A stretch of 64,000 nt of DNA from Escherichia coli. GTDB lineage: Bacteria > Pseudomonadota > Gammaproteobacteria > Enterobacterales > Enterobacteriaceae. Where the stretch lies: assembly GCF_003018255.1 (NCBI RefSeq), contig NZ_CP027440.1; one strand, written 5' to 3'. How positions within the stretch are numbered: the stretch's first letter is position 1; each line of letters starts with the position of its first letter. The translations under genes were made by a program, and so were the position numbers. The notes under the pieces were generated by a model. The model had not been told where the DNA came from and did no database searches. It saw nothing but the letters and a program-made list of their open reading frames with translations. Below are positions 2,270-58,909 of this stretch, in pieces.

Positions 2270-3118
2270 TCATGCTTCGTCTGGTTGCCAGCCTTCCGTA
2301 TACCAGATATGCAACAGCGCATAAGAACGCAAGGGCTTCCAGCGTTCGGCATAACGGCGGATTTGTGCCGGTGTCATTCCCGGAAATCGCTGTTTAATCA
2401 GATAATCATCCGGCAGGAAAACATCTTTCGCCTGCCAGCCGCGCAAGGCGAAATAATTCGCCGTCCAGCGCCCGATACCCGGAAAAGTTTGCAGCGTTTT
2501 CATCGCCTGCTCCACATCGCCCGGTATTGTCATTGGTAAGGTGCCCTCCAGCGCCGCATTTGCCAGATGAATCAGCGCCTCTGCCCGTTTCAACGGCATA
2601 CCTAACGCTTTTAATGCCTGCGGATCTGCTGCTGCCAGCCGCTGAGGCGTGGGGAAGCAGACATAATCCGGAAAATCATCCAGCCTTTCGCCATAAAGCT
2701 GTGCCACTCTGGCGGTCAATTTTGCCGCCATCGCCACGCTCACCAGCTGGCCTAAAATCGCCCGCACGCCCTGCTCAAAAGCATCAACACAACCGGGTAA
2801 ACGCAATCCGGGCCGTGCCGCGCCTAACTTGCCCAACGCACCGTTAACAATCTGCGGGTTACATTGCAGATCAAACAGGCGGCTCATTTTCGCCAGACAC
2901 TCTGCGGCAACGGGTTCTAAACCTGCACTTAAATTTATGTGCAGAGTATGGCTGGCTATATCCGGAATAGCAGTCACCACGCCGCGACATTCGCCCACCG
3001 CCAGACTACGGGCATAATAATCGTCAGCGACCGTTTCCACACCGTTCACCGCACGGGCGGCGAGAAATCCCAACATCCACGACCAGTCATACGGCGGCTG
3101 CCAGTTCAGGGTATACAT
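2270..3118 (-). CDS. alkA: 3-methyladenine DNA glycosylase II
   Basis: 282 aa ORF; translation recognised as AlkA (MYTLNWQPPYDWSWMLGFLAARAV...). Confidence 0.9.
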   Translation of the reverse strand: MYTLNWQPPYDWSWMLGFLAARAVNGVETVADDYYARSLAVGECRGVVTAIPDIASHTLHINLSAGLEPVAAECLAKMSRLFDLQCNPQIVNGALGKLGAARPGLRLPGCVDAFEQGVRAILGQLVSVAMAAKLTARVAQLYGERLDDFPDYVCFPTPQRLAAADPQALKALGMPLKRAEALIHLANAALEGTLPMTIPGDVEQAMKTLQTFPGIGRWTANYFALRGWQAKDVFLPDDYLIKQRFPGMTPAQIRRYAERWKPLRSYALLHIWYTEGWQPDEA

Positions 3119-3251
3119 CGCATCTCCTTGTTAATCCGCTTTCAGCATAAACGTTATTCAGACGCTACGCTTTGCTTTCATATTCCGGTTGTCGCGACGG
3201 CAACATTTCGCTAAAGTCACGCCCCTTCTTCACCGGCATGGGGATTATTTC

Positions 3252-4604
3252 GTGTTTATTGGTTTTGATTACGGTACAGCAAACTGTTCAGTGGCGGTCA
3301 TGCGCGACGGTAAGCCGCAATTACTGAAAATGGAAAACGACAGCACGCTGCTGCCTTCAATGCTTTGCGCGCCAACGCGTGAAGCGGTAAGCGAATGGCT
3401 GTACCGCCATCATGATGTTCCGGCAGACGACGATGAAACGCAGGCGCTGTTGCGTCGGGCGATTCGTTATAACCGCGAAGAAGATATCGATGTTACGGCG
3501 AAAAGCGTGCAGTTCGGTCTTTCCTCACTGGCACAGTACATTGATGATCCAGAAGAGGTGTGGTTTGTGAAATCACCAAAATCATTCCTCGGTGCCAGCG
3601 GCTTAAAACCGCAGCAGGTAGCGCTGTTTGAGGATCTGGTCTGCGCAATGATGTTGCACATTCGCCAGCAGGCGCAGGCGCAGCTGCCGGAGGCAATTAC
3701 TCAGGCGGTGATTGGTCGCCCGATCAACTTCCAGGGGCTGGGCGGCGATGAAGCAAACGCCCAGGCGCAAGGGATTCTGGAACGCGCGGCGAAGCGTGCC
3801 GGGTTTAAGGATGTGGTATTCCAGTACGAGCCGGTCGCGGCTGGGCTGGATTACGAAGCCACCTTGCAGGAAGAAAAACGGGTGCTGGTGGTGGATATCG
3901 GCGGTGGTACGACTGACTGTTCATTGCTGCTGATGGGGCCGCAGTGGCGTTCGCGTCTCGATCGTGAAGCCAGCCTGCTGGGTCACAGTGGTTGCCGTAT
4001 TGGCGGTAACGATCTGGATATCGCACTGGCGTTTAAAAACCTGATGCCGTTACTGGGCATGGGTGGCGAAACCGAAAAAGGCATCGCCCTGCCGATTCTG
4101 CCGTGGTGGAATGCGGTTGCCATCAACGACGTTCCTGCGCAAAGTGATTTCTACAGTAGTGCCAACGGTCGTCTGCTTAACGACCTGGTACGCGATGCCC
4201 GCGAACCGGAAAAAGTGGCCCTGTTACAGAAAGTCTGGCGTCAGCGTTTAAGCTATCGCCTGGTACGTAGCGCAGAAGAGAGCAAAATTGCGCTTTCAAG
4301 CGTAGCGGAAACCCGCGCCTCACTGCCGTTTATCAGCGATGAACTGGCTACGCTGATTAGCCAGCAAGGGCTGGAAAGCGCCCTCAGCCAGCCACTGGCG
4401 CGGATTCTGGAACAGGTGCAACTGGCGCTGGATAACGCCCAGGAAAAACCGGATGTTATCTATCTGACCGGCGGTAGCGCCCGTTCACCGCTGATTAAAA
4501 AAGCGCTGACAGAACAGTTGCCGGGCATTCCGATTGCAGGTGGCGATGACTTTGGCTCCGTCACCGCCGGGCTGGCACGCTGGGCGGAAGTGGTGTTTCG
4601 TTAA
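3252..4604 (+). CDS. yegD: Hsp70/actin-fold ATPase YegD
   Basis: ORF 3189..4604; likely GTG start at 3252 giving 450 aa (VFIGFDYGTANCSVAV...), DnaK-like N-terminal phosphate loop. Confidence 0.8.
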   Translation: MFIGFDYGTANCSVAVMRDGKPQLLKMENDSTLLPSMLCAPTREAVSEWLYRHHDVPADDDETQALLRRAIRYNREEDIDVTAKSVQFGLSSLAQYIDDPEEVWFVKSPKSFLGASGLKPQQVALFEDLVCAMMLHIRQQAQAQLPEAITQAVIGRPINFQGLGGDEANAQAQGILERAAKRAGFKDVVFQYEPVAAGLDYEATLQEEKRVLVVDIGGGTTDCSLLLMGPQWRSRLDREASLLGHSGCRIGGNDLDIALAFKNLMPLLGMGGETEKGIALPILPWWNAVAINDVPAQSDFYSSANGRLLNDLVRDAREPEKVALLQKVWRQRLSYRLVRSAEESKIALSSVAETRASLPFISDELATLISQQGLESALSQPLARILEQVQLALDNAQEKPDVIYLTGGSARSPLIKKALTEQLPGIPIAGGDDFGSVTAGLARWAEVVFR

Positions 4605-4616
4605 TTGAAAACTGGC

Positions 4617-6566
4617 TCAGCAACGGCTTAAATCAGCCTGCGCCTGAGCCAGTTTTTCTGCCGCCTGACGTAGCGGTTCCATCAACGGCATGGTCCGTGC
4701 TGGAGCATGAAGGCGGAATCGCTGCAACTCTGTCGCACCGACATTCAGCGCCGATTCCAGCCGATGTCGTTTGGCGGCCATTTTTGCCATTACCGCTTGT
4801 CTGTCTGCAGGCGTTACCGCTTCGTTCGGCCTGAACACAAAACGGCGTTCACAGCTCGCTTTCCAGTCGATAACCGCCTGGGTCAGATGATCACCAAAAC
4901 CTTTCACTTGCTTAACGCTCCGTCGGGTAACATCCGCTGCTGTTTCAATACCAAAGGACCGTAACGCCGCTTTACGCGCAGGGCCAACGCCGGGAATAGA
5001 GGCAACATCAATAAAAAATCCCTCCAGAAACTTCTGCTTCTGCCGTTCCCTTGCGGTGTCCTGAAGTGCTGCCAGATCGCGCTTTTCTTCTTCCGGTAAC
5101 CCAAGAATTTCGTCCTTCATTTTTTCGAGCATCGTCCGTTTGGCGATAAAACCTTCCAGCCCGCCCAACTGCTGGATCTGGCTGACTAAATGGTCATAGT
5201 CCATTTTCGCGCGATTAAACGCCTCACGGCGTTGCTGGATTTCTGCTTTGTACGCTTTGCTTGTCAGGCTGCCAATAATCCAGATAGCCGCCAGCACAGG
5301 AACCAAAATAATATAACGTGGTTCTGTCTGAAGGCCGCAAAGCAGCAGCGATAACGCTGACAGTGCGATCTCAATCAGAATGATGTATTCACGCCTTAAC
5401 AGGCCTAAAGGAAGCGGCCTGCCAGTCGGTTGGAAATGATCGGGTAATGGTAATTGCAATGCTGGCGGTGCTACTGACGCCATCACCATCGCCCAGACTT
5501 TCGCCAGCACAAAATCACCGCTGGTGGTAATGACCTCTTCGCCGAGATCAATAAAATAGATAACGCCTTGATTATCCAGAGCACACCACGGGCAGTCAGC
5601 CAAATGACCGGGATAAACATGCATTGCCGAAACGGTACATTTCTTTAACTGTTGGCGTAGTAAATCAAGTGCCGCTACCCACGCTTTTGCCGTCGGACGC
5701 CCGGTTGCCACGCCACTTTCCGTGAATGCCTGCTGAAACATGGCTTCAACATCGCCCGGTAACATCGACAGCGGAATAGATCGTGGCGGCGGTTTTAAAC
5801 CACGTCGCTGATTATCTGACGCGTAGGCATAACGGAAATGGGCAATATCCGTCTCCAGTGCATTACCCGCATCAGAGACAAGCGGTACACCGGAATAAGG
5901 ATGCCGCCCACCAAACAAGACGTGAAAAATCAGCAACGCAAGGCCAAAATTATCGTGATTCGCGGTGCGTTCAAAGCCGACAAATGATGGCAAGGTTTGT
6001 TGCTCTGGCGGCGTAAAATGCGACACGCCGACTTCGCATAAATGCAGCGTGCCATTGGCGTTAATCTGAAAGGAGTCGCTATCAATCAACACCACTTTGC
6101 TGTCGCGACCTACCATAAAGCTGTTCTGGTTTACGTCACCCACGACGTGCCCGTGCTCGTGAATCGTAGCAAAAGATGAAGCAATATTGCGCGCAACATA
6201 GAGTAGAAAATCCCACGCACAATGAGGGTAACGTTGACGACGATGTGCCGGGCTATAGATCATATGAATCGGTTCTTTACCAGAAACTTTTGGCATCATA
6301 AAACCGATTACTTTTCCGCCTCGTCCACCGTGAAGCGTTGCCTGCGGCCAGGCGACATAATTCAACAACTGCGCGTCAGCTGTCGCAGCCATAAAGGCAA
6401 GTTTGTCCTGTTTTAAGGCGGGTGGCGGCGTGTGATAAATCTTGGCGACGCTATCGACAAACTCCTCGATATCATAAACCGCGCCTTCACCGCCTTTGCC
6501 CAGTTCACAGCCTGGCGTAACGCACTCACCAGTAGCAGTATATAAAGTGGGTTTCATGGTAACCAC
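4617..6566 (-). CDS. yegI: Ser/Thr protein kinase-like membrane protein YegI
   Basis: 649 aa ORF; N-terminal kinase-like domain, central hydrophobic segments, C-terminal helix-hairpin-helix-like region; start overlaps stop of upstream yegK. Confidence 0.8.
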   Translation of the reverse strand: MVTMKPTLYTATGECVTPGCELGKGGEGAVYDIEEFVDSVAKIYHTPPPALKQDKLAFMAATADAQLLNYVAWPQATLHGGRGGKVIGFMMPKVSGKEPIHMIYSPAHRRQRYPHCAWDFLLYVARNIASSFATIHEHGHVVGDVNQNSFMVGRDSKVVLIDSDSFQINANGTLHLCEVGVSHFTPPEQQTLPSFVGFERTANHDNFGLALLIFHVLFGGRHPYSGVPLVSDAGNALETDIAHFRYAYASDNQRRGLKPPPRSIPLSMLPGDVEAMFQQAFTESGVATGRPTAKAWVAALDLLRQQLKKCTVSAMHVYPGHLADCPWCALDNQGVIYFIDLGEEVITTSGDFVLAKVWAMVMASVAPPALQLPLPDHFQPTGRPLPLGLLRREYIILIEIALSALSLLLCGLQTEPRYIILVPVLAAIWIIGSLTSKAYKAEIQQRREAFNRAKMDYDHLVSQIQQLGGLEGFIAKRTMLEKMKDEILGLPEEEKRDLAALQDTARERQKQKFLEGFFIDVASIPGVGPARKAALRSFGIETAADVTRRSVKQVKGFGDHLTQAVIDWKASCERRFVFRPNEAVTPADRQAVMAKMAAKRHRLESALNVGATELQRFRLHAPARTMPLMEPLRQAAEKLAQAQADLSRC

Positions 6567-7315
6567 AGCGCCAGTGCCAACGTTTTATCATCATCGGTAC
6601 GCTCGTTTACCGCCGGGCCGGACAAAAACTGCTTTAACAATTCAGGTAATAAATCGAGTTGTTCCTGCGTTGCTGACGCCAGCCCATTGAAAAACGGGGT
6701 AAAGAAAGGCACATGCGGAGAATTATCCAGCATATTTAACGCCAGCCGCTGGATACCATCCGTAAATGCTGCAACTTTGTGCGCACGCTCAGTGCTGGTG
6801 AAAGTTTCCAGTCTGGAAACGGCATCTTCATCGGTAATGAAGTGCGTCATATTGGTATATTCACCCACCATCGGCGTGAGCGGCAGTTGCAAACCGTGCC
6901 CCAAATCTACCACCACGCCGCCATCGCCAATCTGCATAATCAAGGTGCCATTAGCTGATGAAATCAATCCCAAAAACGTGCAGGCAAAATCGCGAACCGC
7001 TAATTCTTTGGCTTCCGCCTCGGCAAAAAGTCGCTGACGAATGGTCAGCACAATGTCCGTTGCGAGAACATCATTAAGCCCCAATTCCCCGCCCTGCACT
7101 TTTTGCGACATATAAGCCATCGCTTCATTGACGGCGAGCATCGCACCTTCGCCTCCCTGCGAGGCGCTACCTGCGCCATCAGCGACAAATACCGACAATA
7201 ATGGCTGCTGGTCATTTAACCAGGCAACCTGCATCTGGCAGGCATCCTGGCAAGGCAAGTCCGCGCTGATGTGCGACGTTCCAACGGTTGATGCATAGAC
7301 CAGACGCCAGCTCAC
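6554..7315 (-). CDS. yegK: PP2C-family Ser/Thr protein phosphatase YegK (PphC)
   Basis: 253 aa ORF with PP2C-like metal-binding motifs (VADGAGS, FTDGI); overlaps yegL stop by 4 nt. Confidence 0.75.
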
Positions 7316-7971
7316 ACTGACGTCCAGCCTTTTGGCGCTTCCAGCACAACTTCCGTTCCCGGCGTGGAGCGGGAAACCGAACGCAGCGAACTGGATAACC
7401 AGCTAAATAGTTCGCGGAATTGTAATCCTTGAAGAGGCAAAGGCTGACGAACGCTGATTTGGGCCAGCGTCTTCATATCCGCCCCCTGAACACCGATGGA
7501 AAAGAAGGCAAACTTCTTATCTTCTTCCCCCTGAAACACCTTGTTGGCAGCAGCCTGCCACTCATCGGTTGGTGCGCCATCGGTAATCAGGAAAATCCAC
7601 GGACGATAATAGGAAATACCATTGGCGCGATACTCACGTTTGCGCTCCTCAACCATATCCAGGGCTTTGGTAATGGCGGCCCCCATTGGTGTATCGCCCT
7701 GGGCAAACAGGATGGGCGGGAAAAAATTAGCGGCGCTGGTAAATGGTTGTTCCACATGCACCGGGCCGAACGTCACAATGCCGAGTTCCACTCTTTTTAA
7801 GGCCAGCGGATCGGCAAGCAGCTCATCGCGAAAGGTAACCAATCCGGCGTTAAGTTCATTAATAGGTCTACCGTTCATAGAACCAGAAACATCCAACAGC
7901 AAAATGCAGGGGCAACGTGGTTCCGGGTTACTGGCAAAATCGCTGGTGGCAAACGTGATTTGTTCGCTCAT
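7312..7971 (-). CDS. yegL: von Willebrand factor A domain protein YegL
   Basis: 219 aa ORF with MIDAS motif DVSGSM and downstream TDG. Confidence 0.8.
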
Positions 7972-8152
7972 AAGAAATCCTTTCTTAGAGAATTATTGAG
8001 GCCCGGTATCATACCGACTGCAACAATGAAATAAGAGCAAACGAAGAAACTTTCAGAATTAGGCCCGGCGGCGCAGAAAATTTTGCTATTCGCCTCGCAA
8101 GAACGGAGAGCCGTCGATTGACACTAAGGGCGGAGTGACATAATTTCAGGAG

Positions 8153-8300
8153 TGAGGGTTAGGGAGAGGTTTCCCCCTCCCCCTGGTGTTCTTAGTAAGC
8201 CTGGAAGCTAATCACTAAGAGTATCACCAGTATGATGACGTGCTTCATCATAACCCTTTCCTTATTAAAAGCCCTCTTCTCCGGGAGAGGGTTTCCCGTT
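8153..8300 (+). ncRNA. sibA: Sib antisense RNA antitoxin, copy 1 (boundaries approximate)
   Basis: Plus-strand -35 ttgaca 8118-8123, 17 bp spacer, -10 taattt 8141-8146; transcript fully covers ibs ORF; hairpin plus T tract near 8268-8303. Confidence 0.55.
8192..8251 (-). CDS. ibsA: Ibs type I toxin, 19 aa hydrophobic peptide (MMKHVIILVILLVISFQAY)
   Basis: Reverse complement of 8192..8251 reads ATGATGAAGCACGTCATCATACTGGTGATACTCTTAGTGATTAGCTTCCAGGCTTACTAA; SD-like ggaaaggg upstream. Confidence 0.8.
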   Translation of the reverse strand: MMKHVIILVILLVISFQAY

Positions 8301-8487
8301 TCAGCGTCCCGCTGAAATCGTCGGCTTACCTCCTTTCGCCCTGAATGCAGTCTATCGCTAACGCGTGAACAAAATAGTTTCCTCTGTGATTATTGCGTAA
8401 CGACTCGCAAAGAATATTTGCTGGCAGGATCGCAGACTACAAAGCCTGCGGATTGACAATCTTATCGTGAAGGCATAATTTCAGGAG

Positions 8488-8630
8488 TGAGGGTAGAGCG
8501 GGGTTTCCCCCGCCCTGGTAGTCTTAGTAAGCTGGCCAGCTAATAACTAAGAGCACCACGATGATGAGTAGCTTCATCATGACCCTTTCCTTATTTAAGG
8601 CCCCTTCCTCGGGAGGGGCTTTCCCGTTTC
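8488..8630 (+). ncRNA. sibB: Sib antisense RNA antitoxin, copy 2 (approximate)
   Basis: ttgaca 8453-8458, 17 bp spacer, taattt 8476-8481; hairpin ggccccttcctcgggaggggct followed by ttcccgtttc. Confidence 0.55.
8524..8580 (-). CDS. ibsB: Ibs type I toxin, 18 aa (MMKLLIIVVLLVISWPAY)
   Basis: Reverse complement of 8524..8580 gives ATGATGAAGCTACTCATCATCGTGGTGCTCTTAGTTATTAGCTGGCCAGCTTACTAA. Confidence 0.8.
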   Translation of the reverse strand: MMKLLIIVVLLVISWPAY

Positions 8631-8815
8631 AGCGTCCCGCTGAAATCGGCGGCCTACCTCCTTTCGCCATGCAAGCAGTCTATCGCTAACTTGCAGATAA
8701 AATAGTTTCACATGTGATTATTGCGTAACGTCTCGCAAAGAATATTTGCTGGCAGGATCGCAGACTACAAAGCCTGCGGATTGACAATCTAATTGTGAAG
8801 GCATACTTTCAGGAG

Positions 8816-8957
8816 TGAGGGTAGAGCGGGGTTTCCCCCGCCCTGGTAGTCTTAGTAAGCCGGGAAGCTTATGACTAAGAGCACCACGATGATGATCCAC
8901 TTCATCATGACCCTTTCCTTATTTAAGGCCCCTTCCTCGGGAGGGGCTTTCCCGTTT
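8816..8957 (+). ncRNA. Sib-family antisense RNA, copy 3 (approximate)
   Basis: ttgaca 8781-8786, 17 bp spacer, -10-like tacttt 8804-8809; terminator hairpin ending near 8957. Confidence 0.5.
8852..8908 (-). CDS. Ibs-family type I toxin, 18 aa (MMKWIIIVVLLVISFPAY)
   Basis: Reverse complement of 8852..8908 gives ATGATGAAGTGGATCATCATCGTGGTGCTCTTAGTCATAAGCTTCCCGGCTTACTAA. Confidence 0.75.
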   Translation of the reverse strand: MMKWIIIVVLLVISFPAY

Positions 8958-9143
8958 CAGCGTCCCGCTGAAATCATCGGCTTACCTCCTTTCGCCCTGA
9001 ATGCAGTCTATCGCTGACTTGCGGATAAAATAGTTTCACATGTGATTATTGCGTGACGTCTCGCAAAGAATATTTGCTGGCAGGATCGCAGACTGCAAAG
9101 CCTGCGGATTGACAATCGGACCGTGAAGGCATACTTTCAGGAG

Positions 9144-9287
9144 TGAGGGTAGAGCGGGGTTTCCCCCGCCCTGGTAGTCTTAGTAAGCTGGGTAGCTAAC
9201 GACTAAGAGCACCACGATGATGAGTATCTTCATCATGACCCTTTCCTTATTTAAGGCCCCTTCCTCGGGAGGGGCTTGCCCGTTTCA
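9144..9287 (+). ncRNA. Sib-family antisense RNA, copy 4 (approximate)
   Basis: ttgaca 9109-9114, 17 bp spacer, tacttt 9132-9137; terminator hairpin ending near 9286. Confidence 0.5.
9180..9236 (-). CDS. Ibs-family type I toxin, 18 aa (MMKILIIVVLLVVSYPAY)
   Basis: Reverse complement of 9180..9236 gives ATGATGAAGATACTCATCATCGTGGTGCTCTTAGTCGTTAGCTACCCAGCTTACTAA. Confidence 0.75.
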   Translation of the reverse strand: MMKILIIVVLLVVSYPAY

Positions 9288-22529: not shown

Positions 22530-22613
22530 TTAATTTCGATTATTTTTCCCGGATGGAAAATTCTTAGAAACCGATCACATACAGCTGCATTTATTAAGGT
22601 TATCATCCGTTTC

Positions 22614-22700
22614 GCTGAAAAACATAACCCATAAAATGCTAGCTGTACCAGGAACCACCTCCTTAGCCTGTGTAATCTCCCTTACACGGGCTTATTTTTT
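22614..22700 (+). ncRNA. cyaR: CyaR (RyeE) Hfq-dependent small RNA
   Basis: Sequence gctgaaaaacataacccataaaatgctagctgtaccaggaaccacctccttagcctgtgtaatctcccttacacgggcttatttttt matches CyaR as recalled, including terminator hairpin and U tract. Confidence 0.85.
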
Positions 22701-34648: not shown

Positions 34649-35610
34649 GCGGCGCTCGATTACACACGCTGCTGCCTGAATTAACCTCGCGTCAGCCAGT
34701 TATGGTGATTGGCGCGGCGGTCATTGATGTGATCGCCGACGCTTATGCCCTCCCCTGGCGTGGGTGCGATATCGAACTGAAACAGCAGAGCGTTAACGTT
34801 GGCGGCTGTGCACTGAATATTGCCGTGGCATTAAAGCGCCTCGGCATCGAAGCGGGTAATGCCTTGCCGCTCGGTCAGGGGGTGTGGGCGGAGATTATTC
34901 GCAACCGGATGGCAAAAGAGGACTTAATCAGCCTGATCGATAACGCCGAAGGTGATAACGGCTGGTGTCTGGCGCTGGTTGAGCCTGATGGCGAACGCAC
35001 TTTTATGTCATTCAGCGGTGTGGAAAATCAGTGGAATCGCCAGTGGCTGGCGCGATTAACCGTTGCGCCTGGCAGCCTGCTCTATTTTTCCGGTTATCAA
35101 CTGGCCTCGCCCTGCGGCGAATTGTTAGTGGAATGGCTGGAAAAGCTGCAAGACGTGACGCCGTTTATCGATTTTGGCCCACGTATTGGCGATATCCCGG
35201 ATGCATTACTGGCGCGGATCATGGCCTGTCGACCTTTAGTGTCACTCAATCGTCAAGAGGCTGAGATTGCCGCCGAACGTTTTGCTTTATCCGCAGAGAT
35301 AACAACACTTGGCAAGCAATGGCAGGAGAAATTTGCCGCGCCGTTGATCGTTCGTCTCGATAAAGAGGGCGCATGGTATTTCAGCAACGACGCTTCTGGC
35401 TGCATTCCGGCATTTCCAACGCAAGTTGTAGACACCATTGGGGCGGGCGACAGTCATGCCGGTGGCGTACTTGCCGGGCTGGCCTCTGGTCTGCCACTGG
35501 CGGATGCCGTATTACTGGGCAATGCAGTGGCGTCGTGGGTTGTCGGGCATCGGGGCGGTGATTGTGCGCCAACGCGCGAGGAACTACTCCTCGCACACAA
35601 AAACGTATAG
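34645..35610 (+). CDS. yegV: PfkB-family sugar/nucleoside kinase YegV
   Basis: 321 aa; PfkB signature DTIGAGDSHAGG; overlaps yegU stop. Confidence 0.8.
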   Translation: MSGARLHTLLPELTSRQPVMVIGAAVIDVIADAYALPWRGCDIELKQQSVNVGGCALNIAVALKRLGIEAGNALPLGQGVWAEIIRNRMAKEDLISLIDNAEGDNGWCLALVEPDGERTFMSFSGVENQWNRQWLARLTVAPGSLLYFSGYQLASPCGELLVEWLEKLQDVTPFIDFGPRIGDIPDALLARIMACRPLVSLNRQEAEIAAERFALSAEITTLGKQWQEKFAAPLIVRLDKEGAWYFSNDASGCIPAFPTQVVDTIGAGDSHAGGVLAGLASGLPLADAVLLGNAVASWVVGHRGGDCAPTREELLLAHKNV

Positions 35611-36330
35611 ATCGCTGCGACAGTGGCTGATGCTGTACTCAATAGGCCGTTGCTGTTGGTCAAGCGCCACTTGCTTGATCACCAGCACCGGTATTTTGCT
35701 ATCTAACTGAATATGTGACTGAAACTCGGCATCCGGCATCCGGGCGCTAACGCGGGAACGCGTACGTTGTGGGTAAATGTGCTGGCTGCGGAAGTAGTCA
35801 TAAAGAGAAATCCCGATGGCATCAACATCATGAATTAAATGTGCCGGAACCCACGATTCCTCAATCGATACCGCCTCTTCATCGACATAGCGAATACGCT
35901 TAAGCAAAAAGACATCACTTCCCGCTTCGACCGCCAGCTGCTGCGCGACTTCTTCGGGACATTTCACGACACGCTTGTTAACCCATAACGTATCGGGCTT
36001 TTTCCCGCGCAATACCACCTGCTGAGAAAACCCCCGCGCTTCTTTCAGCGAGTATTCGAAGATGTTGTTGATCTGCGTGCCGTAACCACGCGAACGCGTC
36101 ACCACGCCCTCTTCTTCCAGCGACTGCATCGCCTTGCGCACCGTAATGCGCGAAACGCCGGTTAACTGACTTAAATCACGCTCACCGGGCAAAATATTGC
36201 CATGCTCCAGCACCCCGCTGCGCACGGCATTTTTTACCGTTTCGGCAAACTTAATATAAAGCGGCGTGTTATCCGCCGCTAAAATACGCTCGTTCAGTTG
36301 GGCAATCAGCTGGGTATGCGCTTGTTCCAT
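35584..36330 (-). CDS. yegW: GntR-family (HutC subfamily) transcriptional regulator YegW
   Basis: 248 aa; N-terminal winged HTH and UTRA-like C-terminus. Confidence 0.8.
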   Translation of the reverse strand: MEQAHTQLIAQLNERILAADNTPLYIKFAETVKNAVRSGVLEHGNILPGERDLSQLTGVSRITVRKAMQSLEEEGVVTRSRGYGTQINNIFEYSLKEARGFSQQVVLRGKKPDTLWVNKRVVKCPEEVAQQLAVEAGSDVFLLKRIRYVDEEAVSIEESWVPAHLIHDVDAIGISLYDYFRSQHIYPQRTRSRVSARMPDAEFQSHIQLDSKIPVLVIKQVALDQQQRPIEYSISHCRSDLYVFVCEE

Positions 36331-36381
36331 TTGTCTTTTTCCTGCCGGGGAATCTGGTGGGAGTATATCACTGCTTCTTAT

Positions 36382-37209
36382 TTAAGGCGTTTCTTTAATC
36401 CCATCAACGAATGCCTGCAACTCCTCCACCGTGCCATTAAACACATTAAAATCCACCGGACCATTAATGCCATCGACCTGTCCACGGTCGGAATGCTGCC
36501 AGAAGCGCCAGGCCATGCCGTCATTGTCCGGGCGACGTTGATAATAGTGAGCCACCCACCACGGATATTCATTGAAATAGCCCGCCAGATTGGTGTGATA
36601 AAAAACGGCTCCTGAGTAAATAATTGGCTTTTTACCCGTACGTTTTTCGACCATTTTTAGCCACTGACTTACCCGCTTGCGTAATTCTTTTGCCGATAAT
36701 TTTCCCCGTTCTTCTACGTCCAGCACGGCAGGGAAATCGCCTTGTGAGAAATCCACCGTTTGCAGAAATAATCTCGCCTGAACTGAAGCAGATACCGACG
36801 GGGAAAAATAATGATACGCCCCGCGCAGCAGGCCATTTTCGCGGCTTAGTTGCCAGTTACGCGAAAAATAGGGGTCCACCAGCTTTTCGCCTTCCGTCGC
36901 CTTAATAAAAGCAAACTGTAAGCGGATACCGTTGTCGCGCATTTTTGCCACACGCTGCCAGTCGATCCGCTCCTGCCAGCGTGAAACATCTATTCCGTGA
37001 ATGGTGTAACTGGCAGGAATGCGAATAGCGAAAGATTTAACCGGGCGATAACCGTAGAAGTGGATGTAGTCTTTAATCTGAATTGCTGTCGAATAGAAAA
37101 AATTCACCGTCTGACGCGGATAAATTGCAACGATGGAAATTAGCCCAAGAGCGCATAATAAAACGGTGAATTTTTTTCGACTGGTGATTCTCAACTGCAT
37201 TGGTTTCAT
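36382..37209 (-). CDS. yegX: Glycoside hydrolase family 25 (lysozyme-like) protein YegX
   Basis: 275 aa; N-terminal signal/anchor (FTVLLCALGLISIVAIY) followed by GH25-like domain (GIDVSRWQERIDW...). Confidence 0.7.
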   Translation of the reverse strand: MKPMQLRITSRKKFTVLLCALGLISIVAIYPRQTVNFFYSTAIQIKDYIHFYGYRPVKSFAIRIPASYTIHGIDVSRWQERIDWQRVAKMRDNGIRLQFAFIKATEGEKLVDPYFSRNWQLSRENGLLRGAYHYFSPSVSASVQARLFLQTVDFSQGDFPAVLDVEERGKLSAKELRKRVSQWLKMVEKRTGKKPIIYSGAVFYHTNLAGYFNEYPWWVAHYYQRRPDNDGMAWRFWQHSDRGQVDGINGPVDFNVFNGTVEELQAFVDGIKETP

Positions 37210-37264
37210 CCCTGAATGTCAGCACCAAAGGCTGACAATAACCAAAGCAGCTATAGTACGGTGC

Positions 37265-38065
37265 TCACCACCAGGCGTGGAAGTGGTGAACCGGACCAAT
37301 ACCGTGACCAACTTCCAGCGTGTCGGCCTGGGCTAATGCCGATGAAAGCCAGCTTTTTGCCTCCTGTACGGTGTCAGCCCAGTTTGTATGGCGCGGGCGT
37401 AGTGCAGCCAACGCCGCAGAGAGCGTACAACCAGTGCCGTGGGTGTTTTTGGTCATAATGCGCGGTGCAGTAAATCGTTGTTCCCCCTCACGAGTAAACA
37501 GCCAGTCCGGGCTTTGCTCATCATCCAGATGACCACCTTTCATTAGCACTGCGCCACAGCCCATCACCAACAGCGATCGCCCTTGTTCCAGCATTTCCTG
37601 TTCGGTGCGCGCGTGTGGCGCGTCGAGCAAGGCGGCTGCTTCGGGCAAGTTTGGCGTTATTAATGAAACATGTGGCAATAATCGACTGCGCAGCGTAGCA
37701 ACCGCCGAAGGTGAAAGCAGCGGGTCGCCGCTTTTTGCCAGCATAACGGTGTCGAGTACCACGTTTTGGATCTGATAACGTTGCAACCGTTCTGCCACCG
37801 CTTCAACAATATCGGTTTCCGCCAACATACCGATTTTAGTGGTGTCGATTCGCACATCACTGAACACCGAATCGAGCTGGGCGGCGACAAAATCAGGCTC
37901 AATGCGATACACCGACTGTACACCACGGGTATTTTGCGCCACCAGTGCAGTAATAACTGAGCAACCATAAGCGCCAAGTGCCGAGAAGGTTTTAAGATCG
38001 GCCTGAATCCCCGCACCACCACTCGGATCAGTACCGGCAATCGTCAGAGCGTTAATTCGTTTCAT
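37265..38065 (-). CDS. thiD: Hydroxymethylpyrimidine/phosphomethylpyrimidine kinase
   Basis: 266 aa ORF recognised as ThiD; overlaps thiM stop. Confidence 0.9.
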
Positions 38066-38850
38066 GCCTGCACCTCCTGCGTCAATTGCCAGAGCGCATC
38101 AAGGAAATGTGGAACAAAACTGCCTGGCCCCTCGCTTCTGGCAACTGCGCGTTCTCCGGCTTGTTTCATCCAGTGACAGGCAGATGCGATATTTTCCAGC
38201 GTATCGCCTGGTAGCGCACAACAGGCAGCGACAACCGCCGATAGTGCACAGCCAGTTCCTACCACTTTGGCCATTAGCGGATCGCCACCGTGAATGCCAA
38301 CGGTGCGACGACCATCGGTAACATAATCCACCTCGCCAGTGACCACGACGATTGCGCCAGTTTCCCGTGCCAGTGTTTGTGCAGCGGGTATCGCATTAGC
38401 TGCGGCGTCAGTGGTATCCACTCCCCGTCCACCATTAGCAACGCCAGCTAATGCCATGATTTCCGAAGCATTACCACGTATGGCGGTTGGCTTATGGGAC
38501 AGAAGTTCCACACAAAAACGGCGGCGATAATCGAGCGCACCAACCGCAACCGGATCAAGCGTCCAGGGCGTTTGTGATCGTGTTGCTTGCTCAACGGCAG
38601 CACTCATCGCTTGCGCTCGTGGCTGCGTCAGTGTGCCAACGTTAATCAGCAACGCACTGGCGATAGCCGCAAACTGACTGGCTTCTTCGGTTTCGATAAC
38701 CATCGCTGGCGATGCACCGAGCGCCAGCAAGGTATTGGCAGTAAAGGTTTGCACCACATCGTTGGTCATACAGTGCACAAGAGGGGAATGTTGGTGAAAA
38801 AGGTGTAACGCGTGCGCAGATTGCGCTGAACTCAGCAGGTCGACTTGCAT
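38062..38850 (-). CDS. thiM: Hydroxyethylthiazole kinase
   Basis: 262 aa ORF recognised as ThiM. Confidence 0.9.
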
Positions 38851-38859
38851 AGTTTGCTC

Positions 38860-38975
38860 CTGCCATAACGTGAAGAAGCAATGACCTGGTGGTCCGTGAC
38901 TTCCCTACGCTGGCATTATCCAGATCAGGTGATACGGGTATTTCTCAGCCTTCACAAAGAAGGGCACCCCGAGTC
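38860..38975 (-). promoter_or_regulatory. TPP (THI-box) riboswitch in thiMD leader
   Basis: Minus-strand sequence ...ctcggggtgcccttct...ctgagaaatacccgtatcacctgatctggataatgccagcgtagggaagtcacggacc... matches the thiM thi-box aptamer as recalled. Confidence 0.85.
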
Positions 38976-39072
38976 GTTTGGTTGCGATAATAAATCGCAG
39001 AGGAGGATGGTAATGTCCAGCGCACGCGTTGTAAACGGGGAAAAACGGCGGTATTACAATCGCGTTAATAAA

Positions 39073-40928: not shown

Positions 40929-41963
40929 TTAGTCGTATTTCACGTTGATTAATGCGGTTGCCTCCAGTGCGCCAGATTTAACTTTGTTTGTATCGTAGAC
41001 GTAGTAACTGGCCGTTATCGGAATTGAAACCGTTGTATCTGTAAGTTTTGACTTTGCCGCAATTTCTTTTAAATTTGTATATCCTTTACTGCTGTTAGTG
41101 ATATTTAAAAGTGTGACTGGCGTACCATTACTTTCAAGAATAAATCCTACGCCATTATCTTCCGCACCTTTCAGGATCGTGTTGCTGTTGGTTAACAAGT
41201 CAGAACTTGATAAATACACCTGCATTTTCCGTGATGTTTGATTTTGTTGACCTAATAAATTTTTACAACGCAGAATAATATCCCCTTTTTTACTATTTAT
41301 TGTTGTTTTGTTACCTGTGGCTGGTAATTGTGAAACGGGAATACTCTCTAACGTAATTAATAAATCGTCCGGTTTGCAGGTTGTGGTTATCGGGTTGTAT
41401 GACAATGTCAGATTAAAGGAATAGACACCTGCATTTTGTGCCAATGCATTTCTGTAGCTATTTACACATGCATCCCATGACTTACCACCTAATAAACACA
41501 GTAGAAATTGTACTGCGGCACTCCCGCGTGTCGATGATGAAGCACTGGATAATGTCGCAACTCCATTAATCATCACTGAACCACCGCCCCCCGCAGAAAC
41601 ATTCACTTTTGCATTACTGGCCGCAGGTGTCACCGTCACCGAATAACCACTGGTGAAACTGGTCTGATTATTTGACAACGTAATGTTGTTTTTATTGGTC
41701 CATTCAAAATGTAAATTTAATTTAATGGTATCGTTATAAAGTCCAACAATAATATCCGACGGGCTCATAGGTGTGATAGTATTTGTACTCACGCATGACG
41801 AATCATTAAAATTATGCTCATATGTCGCCATTTGTGTTTGAGTAAGTGCAAAATCCCCCTGAACAACCAAATTGTGCTGAACAGATAACTCACTATAACA
41901 TGCCGCATAGCTCACAGGCATAACCATCATCATTACTATAAATAGCATTATGCGAATTTCCAT
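40929..41963 (-). CDS. yehA: Fimbrial adhesin-like protein YehA
   Basis: 344 aa, signal peptide, Thr/Ser-rich; last gene of chaperone-usher operon. Confidence 0.8.
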   Translation of the reverse strand: MEIRIMLFIVMMMVMPVSYAACYSELSVQHNLVVQGDFALTQTQMATYEHNFNDSSCVSTNTITPMSPSDIIVGLYNDTIKLNLHFEWTNKNNITLSNNQTSFTSGYSVTVTPAASNAKVNVSAGGGGSVMINGVATLSSASSSTRGSAAVQFLLCLLGGKSWDACVNSYRNALAQNAGVYSFNLTLSYNPITTTCKPDDLLITLESIPVSQLPATGNKTTINSKKGDIILRCKNLLGQQNQTSRKMQVYLSSSDLLTNSNTILKGAEDNGVGFILESNGTPVTLLNITNSSKGYTNLKEIAAKSKLTDTTVSIPITASYYVYDTNKVKSGALEATALINVKYD

Positions 41964-58217: not shown

Positions 58218-58304
58218 GTTGAGATGCCATGTTGCACTATCAGTAACTTAACATCAAAGTAGTAAATAAAAGAACCTGCCTCACCAGCAGGTTCTTTTAT
58301 TTTC
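58218..58304 (+). ncRNA. orzO: OrzO small RNA antitoxin (approximate ends)
   Basis: Starts about 7 nt after tataat; contains gccatgttgcact complementary to the zorO 5' UTR (plus-strand coordinates about 58060-58073); terminator aaagaacctgcctcaccagcaggttctttt plus T tract. Confidence 0.65.
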
Positions 58305-58825: not shown

Positions 58826-58909
58826 GTTGGTACGAAATGTTGCACAATCAGCAAGTTAGCGTCATTGTAGTAAATAAAAGAACCTGCCTCACCAGCAGGT
58901 TTTTTTATT
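58826..58909 (+). ncRNA. orzP: OrzP small RNA antitoxin (approximate ends)
   Basis: Contains ttggtacgaaatgttgcac, imperfectly matching gttggtacgaaacgttgc in the zorP leader; terminator aaaagaacctgcctcaccagcaggttttttt. Confidence 0.6.

Follow-up and report, generated by a model that had tools for sequence, protein, structure and literature searches.

yegX of Escherichia coli, a predicted membrane-tethered GH25 muramidase gene next to thiMD

Cutting of the glycan strands of E. coli peptidoglycan is generally ascribed almost wholly to lytic transglycosylases, and we know of no need of this bacterium for a hydrolytic muramidase. A conserved, periplasm-facing hydrolase of the GH25 type would thus be a small unexplained item in a well-studied organism. 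A candidate for such an enzyme, yegX, is located in the 64,000 nucleotides of E. coli DNA analysed here (the window), where a sequence-only reading had pictured it as an isolated and possibly domesticated lysozyme-like gene. What does yegX encode, on which side of the membrane would its product act, and how did the gene come to stand beside thiD? The explanation which we consider probable on the whole is that of a tethered periplasmic GH25 muramidase, transcribed by read-through from thiMD and brought in as a single-gene insertion from a cellular family centred on Bacteroidota.

The yegX gene and its catalytic domain

In the list of open reading frames yegX occupies 36382..37209 on the minus strand (275 codons including the stop), between the GntR regulator gene and thiD as previously described; the RefSeq annotation confirmed this placement and gives the coding sequence as 36382..37200 (minus strand, 272 amino acids plus stop). 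The RefSeq start is the second in-frame ATG, at window position 37200, 9 nt inside the end of the frame first read; use of the alternative in-frame ATG (37207-37209, minus strand) would add the residues MKP. An AGGG Shine-Dalgarno-like sequence touches the first ATG and is situated 9 nt upstream of the second one. This spacing favours the annotated start, and the earlier end coordinate was probably 9 nt too far out. The gene is preceded by thiD (37265..38065) and followed by yegW, of the GntR family (35584..36330), all on the minus strand and separated from it by 64 nt and 51 nt, respectively.

The yegX region is 100% identical to that of E. coli strain 2014C-3338, whose annotation there reads ‘yegX: glycoside hydrolase family 25 protein’. 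Hence yegX is an E. coli gene already annotated, and its GH25 assignment already stands in annotations. Complete E. coli genomes carry this locus almost without exception (5424 of 5426). Comparison with other Escherichia and with a Salmonella ortholog gave dN/dS values of 0.05-0.11: yegX is a functional gene under purifying selection. Judged by its sequence, the product would be an unstudied lysozyme-type cell-wall hydrolase of the E. coli core genome. Searches of the full-text literature turned up no work on the enzymatic activity, localisation or mutant phenotype of YegX; the gene was mentioned there only in the tables of screens, for example with a weak sensitivity to boric acid and to epetraborole.

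The muramidase-like character first noticed was borne out by a full-length match to the Pfam GH25 profile (PF01183, positions 1-180 of 180; E 7.6e-55, 186.4 bits for a cut-off of 27) and by the predicted fold; a search of NCBIfam returned no matching model. Pfam, PDB alignments and Foldseek together place the catalytic barrel at about residues 66-254 (36439..37005, minus strand), with D71, D161-x-E163 and D250 as the presumed catalytic residues. D71, D161 and E163 aligned to D9, D98 and E100 of Cellosyl (1JFX), and D161/E163 to D95/E97 of 6ZM8, a DXE pair which has been named catalytic (PMC7954357). The GH25 catalytic Asp and Glu residues are therefore present on alignment; moreover, D71, D161, E163 and D250 were invariant across 21 family members of 44-90% identity (alignment A1).

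The best PDB sequence matches were the GH25 lysozymes 2WAG, 4KRU and 1JFX, with 30-34% identity. The AlphaFold prediction for YegX is a GH25 barrel (pLDDT 87.9), whose top Foldseek match was again 2WAG (E 1.9e-18, TM 0.85, rmsd 2.0 Å); 1JFX was also matched, and all of the 18 best PDB matches were GH25 structures. For the single-domain targets 2WAG, 1JFX and 4KRU, E ranged from 1e-15 to 1e-18 and TM from 0.79 to 0.85. From sequence and model we infer the activity and substrate of the periplasmic domain, which would be a catalytically competent GH25 (Chalaropsis-type) muramidase.

YegX is thus alike in fold to B. anthracis BaGH25c (2WAG), Streptomyces Cellosyl (1JFX) and the endolysin of Clostridium phage phiSM101 (4KRU/4KRT), and has the catalytic Asp / Asp-x-Glu / Asp set in common with the 2WAG, 1JFX and 4KRU enzymes. 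The latter are secreted or phage-released, originate from or are directed against Gram-positives, and some carry separate cell-wall-binding domains. In contrast, YegX is devoid of a binding domain, has a predicted N-terminal membrane helix with a juxtamembrane linker, and is encoded on a Gram-negative chromosome.

The N-terminal helix and the proposed site of action

In YegX the GH25 barrel is preceded by a conserved linker, and this in turn by a hydrophobic helix of 17 residues with a basic N-terminus in front of it. Kyte-Doolittle hydropathy, composition, AlphaFold and alignment A1 define the predicted signal-anchor transmembrane helix at codons 11-27 (FTVLLCALGLISIVAIY; 37120..37170, minus strand). 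L, I, V, F, M, W and Y make up 65% of the 17 residues from F11 to Y27, and Lys/Arg are distributed unequally around them: residues 1-10, ahead of the helix, hold four, the 15 residues that follow it a single one. Composition and flanking charges thereby corroborate the hydrophobic N-terminal signal or anchor suggested earlier. The Kyte-Doolittle maximum of the N-terminus is 1.96 over 19 residues, AlphaFold places the helix at 8-26, and the hydrophobic segment is conserved throughout alignment A1, from Escherichia to Pedobacter. Applied together, sequence rules and the structure model indicate that YegX is probably anchored in the inner membrane in an N-in/C-out orientation, with its muramidase domain in the periplasm; cleavage after Ala25 or a SAR-like release from the membrane would be the less likely alternatives.

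The same N-terminus could also be viewed as a classical signal peptide, whose removal would leave a soluble periplasmic or secreted lysozyme directed at peptidoglycan fragments or at other bacteria. An n-region and an h-region can indeed be recognised in it, the ‘IVA|IY’ sequence (cut after Ala25) loosely meets the -3/-1 rule, and, with a pI of 9.5, the mature domain resembles many secreted lysozymes in being basic. We nevertheless judge cleavage improbable: the 17-residue hydrophobic stretch reaches the candidate cleavage site without a polar c-region, in Bacteroidota relatives the helix is preceded by basic tails of up to ~45 residues, as is usual for signal anchors, and in the model the helix runs on into the conserved linker helix. 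One source, moreover, annotates yegX as a ‘membrane-bound hydrolase’, an annotation and not an experiment.

For the tethered muramidase, a simple scheme can be proposed. The Sec machinery would insert the uncleaved hydrophobic helix (residues 11-27), and the conserved linker of ~40 residues, a helix and a beta-hairpin carrying the SF(G/A)IRIP motif, would keep the barrel close to the membrane. There, D161 and E163 of the DxE pair, aided by D71 and D250, would cleave the MurNAc-beta-1,4-GlcNAc bonds of peptidoglycan by the mechanism usual in GH25 enzymes, which is retaining and substrate-assisted. The products would have reducing MurNAc ends, as opposed to the 1,6-anhydro ends left by the E. 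coli lytic transglycosylases. Tethering and low expression would limit YegX to membrane-near glycan strands or fragments, and thus to turnover or trimming rather than lysis.

The lytic transglycosylases of E. coli (Slt70, MltA-G) are likewise periplasmic and cleave between MurNAc and GlcNAc, as proposed for YegX, and MltG is a single-pass inner-membrane protein thought to work on nascent strands. Their folds are unrelated to that of YegX, however, and they generate 1,6-anhydroMurNAc without water, whereas GH25 enzymes carry out true hydrolysis. The Keio deletion of yegX is reportedly viable. A proven activity and a phenotype would make YegX one more enzyme in the cell-wall toolkit; the present findings leave current understanding unchanged, and their evolutionary and regulatory footnotes are modest.

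Insertion site and transcription downstream of thiMD

In mainstream Salmonella and Citrobacter, yegX is absent and 35-42 nt separate thiD from yegW (empty-site loci L085-L089). About 38 nt of the E. coli yegX-yegW spacer, those nearest yegW, are homologous to this Salmonella/Citrobacter thiD-yegW spacer (alignment A2) and so mark the downstream edge of the inserted segment; on the other side, the junction alignment shows the segment beginning directly after the thiD stop codon. It consists of the yegX ORF and ~70 nt, and no attachment-site or mobile-element scar was found in the junction alignments. As read from these alignments, yegX appears to be a single-gene insertion at the thiMD locus, or else to have been lost in mainstream Salmonella and Citrobacter. 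Besides Escherichia, the gene was found in a rare Salmonella lineage, at another position relative to thiM (rcnB-yegX-thiM arrangement). Both this Salmonella-lineage yegX and that of E. fergusonii were recovered from Logan assemblies and had been missed by the genome-contig search, in which no other Enterobacteriaceae figured in the best 80 of at least 600 stretches.

The GC content of yegX is 47.5%, and its GC3 50.5%. Composition was also considered as a sign of recent transfer: overall GC is below that of thiD and yegW while third positions are within the range of the neighbours, and no usable signal was obtained.

The thiD-yegX spacer (37201..37264, minus strand) includes the AGGG ribosome-binding site and a hairpin, GTCAGC-N7-GCTGAC, without a U-tract. 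Its RNA fold has an energy of -27.1 kcal/mol (z -2.1) and the spacer is conserved in E. albertii and E. fergusonii; terminator scan and RNA folding predicted no terminator in it. Similarly, no stable structure and no terminator was predicted for the yegX-yegW spacer (36331..36381, minus strand). A TPP riboswitch is located upstream of thiM (38885..38981, minus strand; Rfam RF00059, 71.2 bits). TPP has been described to trigger Rho termination within thiM, upon which mRNA of the whole thiMD operon falls (PMC5499598). In an RNA-seq study of three EHEC strains, log2 changes were -3.75, -6.42 and -3.80 for yegX and -3.74, -5.56 and -4.09 for thiD, with thiC, E, F, G and H alongside (PMC6729007).

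Taken with the absence of a predicted terminator, this single RNA-seq table suggests that yegX mRNA follows the thi genes by read-through. Transcribed largely in this way, it would follow the TPP riboswitch, which is likely the upstream controller of a thiM-thiD-yegX transcript. The earlier picture of a gene that sits alone is accordingly doubtful: yegX shares its strand with thiM-thiD and yegW, its short gaps to both neighbours hold no predicted terminators, and its mRNA falls with that of thiD. A promoter of its own may exist as well, as an RNA polymerase binding peak was reported inside the thiD-yegX spacer by genomic SELEX (PMC3946193); scanning the minus strand of this spacer for sigma-70 promoters found none.

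Thiamine-linked regulation of yegX is most simply a by-product of the place of insertion, and the apparent position of the gene on the thiMD riboswitch would be a tidy example of an inserted gene inheriting foreign regulation. The link might instead be functional: when thiamine is limiting, YegX would be deliberately produced along with the salvage kinases ThiM and ThiD, perhaps so that the wall is remodelled or opened for scavenging. In favour of this, yegX mRNA tracks the thi regulon in the three strains, the gene adjoins thiMD downstream of thiD in E. coli, E. albertii and E. fergusonii, and the rare Salmonella lineage has it on the upstream side of thiM, preceded by a decayed TPP riboswitch copy. 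We consider such a function very unlikely, however. The Bacteroidota and Chromobacteriaceae-like loci have no thi genes nearby, mainstream Salmonella and Citrobacter retain thiMD without yegX, and the full complement of GH25 catalytic residues indicates a muramic-acid substrate and not a thiamine-related one. The copy in front of Salmonella yegX, examined as a possible second functional TPP riboswitch, turned out to be only a decayed remnant (blastn 72.7% over 143 nt) that escapes Rfam detection even at E <= 1, so riboswitch control was not kept in this lineage. Finally, a single ancestral insertion, with local duplication and deletion afterwards, is compatible with a place beside thiM or thiD in both lineages.

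Carried furthest, the functional reading would make YegX the only truly hydrolytic membrane-tethered periplasmic muramidase of E. coli, of Bacteroidota-centred origin and induced through the riboswitch when thiamine is scarce. We give little credence to this combination; if true, it would mean that cofactor starvation is tied by regulation to wall turnover or scavenging, and not by an accident of insertion.

Relatives of YegX and the question of a phage origin

Among the matches listed, the closest relatives of yegX (45-57% identity) are chromosomal genes with the same architecture, from Sphingobacteriales and a Chromobacteriaceae-like bacterium; for the cellular relatives taken together, identity over the full length is 44-57%. 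Identity to the Bacteroidota relatives is 44-56% over nearly the full length, and the chromosomal genes of Bacteroidota and of the Chromobacteriaceae-like bacterium adjoin housekeeping genes. These comparisons place yegX, as far as sequence can tell, in a cellular family centred on Bacteroidota. Its occurrence in Escherichia, a rare Salmonella lineage, a Chromobacteriaceae-like bacterium and numerous Bacteroidota is patchy and speaks for horizontal transfer.

The sequence-only reading had noted that no holin, spanin or other phage gene is nearby, which the annotation upheld: within 20 kb on either side of yegX there are no phage genes, all 37 annotated features being chromosomal genes or the TPP riboswitch. 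Phage context was likewise absent at the yegX loci of E. albertii, E. fergusonii and Salmonella. One could still suppose a remnant prophage endolysin, perhaps of the SAR type, in which the helix tethers and later releases the enzyme to the periplasm. GH25 domains are common among endolysins, PHROGs endolysin families match YegX at E 1e-46 to 1e-19, 164 phage records match it by tblastn, and a hydrophobic N-terminus before a muramidase domain resembles the SAR layout. The best phage tblastn matches, however, do not exceed 41% identity, the 41% one being an unannotated 5.6-kb fragment, and the two top matches are unannotated fragments from faecal samples. Named phage endolysins reach at most 37%, over the catalytic domain only, and the endolysin of phage TP-84 falls outside the whole YegX family in a neighbour-joining (NJ) tree. 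The match to an ‘Acinetobacter phage’ is in fact one to a bacterial chromosomal contig.

The SAR endolysins P1 Lyz and R21 of phage 21 also have an N-terminal hydrophobic segment followed by a muramidase domain that ends in the periplasm; their catalytic family is the T4-lysozyme-like GH24, unlike the GH25 of YegX. Gly and Ala abound in SAR helices, two such domains containing 53-65% Gly/Ala/Ser/Thr, whereas the Leu/Ile/Val-rich helix of YegX is 65% strongly hydrophobic with only 29% of these four residues. With chromosomal relatives closest, phage context and holin lacking and the inserted segment scarless, a prophage origin is highly improbable. ‘Domesticated’, if it means phage-derived, is without support: the GH25 proteins nearest to YegX are cellular and membrane-anchored, from Bacteroidota and a betaproteobacterium, and the phage endolysins are more distant.

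The GH25 proteins of Sphingobacteriales (Pedobacter, Solitalea, Mucilaginibacter) are like YegX in having a basic tail, a transmembrane helix, an SFGIRIP linker and the barrel, and differ from it by longer basic N-terminal tails, other neighbours and no thi genes. No experimental study of these membrane-anchored proteins was found in the literature searched. In Pedobacter and close kin, the neighbouring genes include an M20 dipeptidase (32 of 60 loci) and an L-Ala-D/L-Glu epimerase-like protein of the enolase superfamily (26 of 60); both are restricted to this group and do not extend to Mucilaginibacter or Chitinophagaceae. As a guide to function this neighbourhood was set aside, murein-peptide catabolism being only a weak hint with such lineage-restricted neighbours. 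The epimerase-like neighbour scores under the NCBIfam equivalog cut-offs, and the M20 gene beside the Chromobacteriaceae-like homolog is of another subfamily than that of Pedobacter.

The GH25 active site of YegX

The GH25 muramidase-like ORF that the sequence-only reading placed at 36382..37209 is present on the minus strand (275 codons) and is the annotated yegX, 'glycoside hydrolase family 25 protein'. Standard annotation already carries both gene and family; the empty site at thiD/yegW, the Bacteroidota-centred family and the probable riboswitch hitch-hiking described below go slightly beyond it. The window comes from the E. coli chromosome, and its 35400-38200 region is 100% identical to that of strain 2014C-3338 and was matched in 5424 of 5426 complete E. 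coli genomes. RefSeq starts yegX at the second in-frame ATG (37200), giving a 272 aa product, whose residue numbering is used throughout. An AGGG ribosome-binding sequence is contiguous with the first ATG, whereas 9 nt separate it from the second, a spacing which favours translation from the annotated start. The Salmonella ortholog carries the same ATG-x-x-ATG arrangement, so that the annotated start is likely rather than certain.

Pfam GH25 matched YegX over its entire length (profile positions 1-180 of 180, 186 bits, E 7.6e-55), while a search of NCBIfam profiles returned no specific model. The best match among solved structures was the B. anthracis GH25 lysozyme 2WAG (E 6.5e-33), and the other top matches were likewise GH25 lysozymes: the Clostridium phage phiSM101 endolysin (4KRU/4KRT), Streptomyces Cellosyl (1JFX) and fungal 6ZM8. 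YegX D161 and E163 align with D95 and E97 of 6ZM8, described in the structure paper as the catalytic DXE pair (PMC7954357), and D71, D161 and E163 with D9, D98 and E100 of 1JFX. An alignment of 21 family members (44-90% identity to E. coli YegX) shows no variation at D71, D161, E163 or D250, nor at many of the barrel's aromatic positions. When this alignment was used to build an AlphaFold model (mean pLDDT 87.9), the model's best Foldseek matches in the PDB were all GH25 structures, with 2WAG at E 1.9e-18, rmsd 2.0 Å and TM 0.85. Since these acidic residues are conserved and aligned to catalytic ones, the family assignment, which had been made to depend on catalytic Asp/Glu residues, holds. 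On profile match, catalytic residues and fold, the testable features that define GH25, YegX qualifies as a family member. Alignment shows that its active site is conserved and intact, and the protein is predicted to be exposed to the periplasm.

yegX is under purifying selection, with dN/dS values of 0.05-0.11 in comparisons with E. coli-clade genomes, E. albertii, E. fergusonii and one Salmonella ortholog. Many shortened forms (164-241 aa; P0013, P0014, P0020, P0072 and other protein-search hits) were observed in Shigella sonnei, Shigella flexneri and some E. coli, suggesting inactivation in Shigella lineages.

The N-terminus of YegX carries four Lys/Arg and no acidic residue in positions 1-10, followed by a stretch at residues 11-27 (FTVLLCALGLISIVAIY) that is 65% strongly hydrophobic, with a single positive charge in the next 15 residues. 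In the model, a helix at 8-26 runs on into a second one (28-47), which is joined to the barrel by a short beta-hairpin with a conserved SF(G/A)IRIP motif. From Escherichia to Pedobacter, the basic tail, helix, linker and barrel follow one another in the same order; in the Pedobacter homologs the tail is up to ~45 residues long. These features fit an uncleaved signal anchor with a periplasmic catalytic domain. No lipobox was found in the N-terminus, Leu preceding Cys16; cleavage of the N-terminus, or later release of the protein from the membrane, may occur. Of the 'signal/anchor' proposed earlier, the hydrophobic segment stands, and an anchor rather than a cleaved signal is predicted.

Relatives and origin of yegX

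We examined the possibility that YegX is a domesticated phage lysozyme. The 37 features annotated within 20 kb of yegX in each direction include no phage gene, in line with the sequence-only reading, which noticed none nearby. Searching 50,697 phage records by tblastn gave matches of at most 41% identity, the top two lying on fragments from faecal samples that carry no annotation; among named endolysins (Geobacillus TP-84, Bacillus phages) identity was at most 37%, over the catalytic domain only. A GH25 protein of any origin would be expected to match PHROGs endolysin families, and YegX does. The best-scoring family, phrog_23704 (E 6.6e-84), is of unassigned function and spans residues 153-272 only; it was probably built from truncated bacterial yegX calls and not from genuine phage proteins. 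The match in 'Acinetobacter phage MD-2021a' (CAKLQH020000037.1) was rejected as a phage gene: the record is a mislabelled bacterial chromosomal contig with yoaE, dinP and creBCD. Its GH25 gene, annotated 'yegX: membrane-bound hydrolase', is more distant (35% identity). Domestication from a phage is therefore unsupported; YegX fails as a prophage endolysin in both its context and its nearest relatives, which are cellular.

Homologs were ranked from a search of 5.8 billion proteins, and the carriers of the intermediate ones named from exact matches of neighbouring proteins. Beyond Escherichia/Shigella (E. albertii 91%), identity steps down to 77% (E. fergusonii), 68% (a rare Salmonella enterica lineage) and 55-57%, followed by numerous Sphingobacteriales proteins, 44-56% identical along almost the whole length. 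The 55% homolog has ruvC, ruvA, fnr-like and hemN genes as neighbours and belongs to an uncultured, Chromobacteriaceae-like betaproteobacterium, whose DnaB is 85% identical to that of Crenobacter. A neighbour-joining tree recovered Enterobacteriaceae YegX as monophyletic (100/100 bootstraps) and grouped them with the Chromobacteriaceae-like sequences (98/100, with at most one extra taxon) beside Sphingobacteriales; Bacteroides finegoldii, Ensifer, Acinetobacter and the phage TP-84 endolysin fell outside. The family is Bacteroidota-centred. As the tree comes from a fast distance method and limited sampling, transfer from Bacteroidota to Proteobacteria is no more than a suggestion. Base composition (GC3 50.5%) carried no usable signal of origin.

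Mainstream Salmonella and Citrobacter have the order rcnB / thiM thiD yegW / yegVUT, with a thiD-yegW gap of 35-42 nt and without yegX. In E. coli, the ~38 nt that precede yegW are homologous to this Salmonella spacer, so that the extra segment, the yegX ORF plus about 70 nt, starts immediately past the thiD stop codon. Alignment of the junctions revealed no mobile-element scar. This empty site argues for insertion of a single gene. E. fergusonii has thiM-thiD-yegX followed by unrelated genes: two large DUF6493/DUF7824/DUF7825 genes and a SWIM-domain gene (2631-9226 of its locus, L004) replace yegW-yegVUT, breaking downstream synteny. In the rare Salmonella lineage (locus L002), yegX (8001-8807) lies between rcnB and thiM, not after thiD, with an intact riboswitch at 9002-9098. 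At L002:7654-7793, about 350 nt upstream of yegX, lie the degraded remains of a second TPP riboswitch and thiM 5′ end (72.7% over 143 nt), a partial copy that an Rfam scan did not recognise. Tandem duplication of thiMD-yegX followed by deletions would, we infer, explain this layout. Salmonella and E. coli share 68% identity in YegX, 71% in ThiM, 89% in ThiD and 92% in YegW, a divergence compatible with old, vertical presence of yegX at this locus.

Transcription and predicted function

yegX lies on the same strand as the upstream thiM-thiD (thiD, 37265..38065) and downstream yegW (35584..36330), with spacers of 64 and 51 nt. No terminator was predicted in either: the first folds into a hairpin without U-tract (-27.1 kcal/mol, z -2.1), the second is unstructured. 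A TPP riboswitch precedes thiM (38885-38981); it triggers Rho-dependent termination within thiM codons 20-34 and lowers whole-operon mRNA (PMC5499598). In lettuce-extract medium, yegX was among the most repressed genes of three EHEC strains (log2 -3.75, -6.42 and -3.80), with almost equal values for thiD (-3.74, -5.56 and -4.09) and a parallel fall of thiC, E, F, G and H (PMC6729007). The simplest explanation would be that most yegX mRNA comes from thiMD read-through, yegX probably hitch-hiking on the thiM riboswitch. Genomic SELEX placed an RNA polymerase holoenzyme peak in the thiD-yegX spacer (PMC3946193), and a consensus scan of this spacer gave no good sigma-70 site. The 3′ ends of the convergent genes yegV (+) and yegW (-) run 27 nt into each other (35584-35610), as in Salmonella/Citrobacter loci L085-L089.

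YegX is predicted to work like a tethered lysozyme. Expressed at a low, thiamine-dependent level, it would act close to the inner membrane and hydrolyse MurNAc-GlcNAc bonds, either in the peptidoglycan of the cell itself or in fragments of it. Its nearest relatives, membrane-anchored GH25 proteins of Bacteroidota, are themselves uncharacterised. Among Pedobacter and its close relatives, an M20 dipeptidase (NCBIfam NF006053, above cut-off) borders the homolog in 32 of 60 loci, and an enolase-superfamily protein most like L-Ala-D/L-Glu epimerase (below cut-offs) lies on the other side in 26 of 60. These neighbours would fit peptidoglycan-fragment catabolism; the linkage is absent from Mucilaginibacter and Chitinophagaceae and may therefore reflect mere shared ancestry. 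A literature search found no functional study of YegX. The entries that it yielded came from screens: weak sensitivity to boric acid, a growth delay on epetraborole, induction in ground beef (2.3-fold) and, in a heat-adapted strain, an intergenic mutation.

Other features of the window

Rfam matches revealed four tandem Sib antitoxin RNAs at 8118-9251 (+; RF00113, 137-150 bits each, ~330 nt apart), a Sib/Ibs type I toxin-antitoxin array. Similarly, two OrzO-P antitoxin RNA copies (58225-58298 and 58833-58906, +; RF02083, about 90 bits each) indicate a tandem zor-orz type I toxin-antitoxin locus. The CyaR (RyeE) small RNA was matched at full length at 22612-22697 (+; 100.7 bits). Finally, the yehA-D fimbrial operon (40929-41963 and beyond, -) is markedly low in GC, with 38.6% for yehA versus 50.9% for the whole window.
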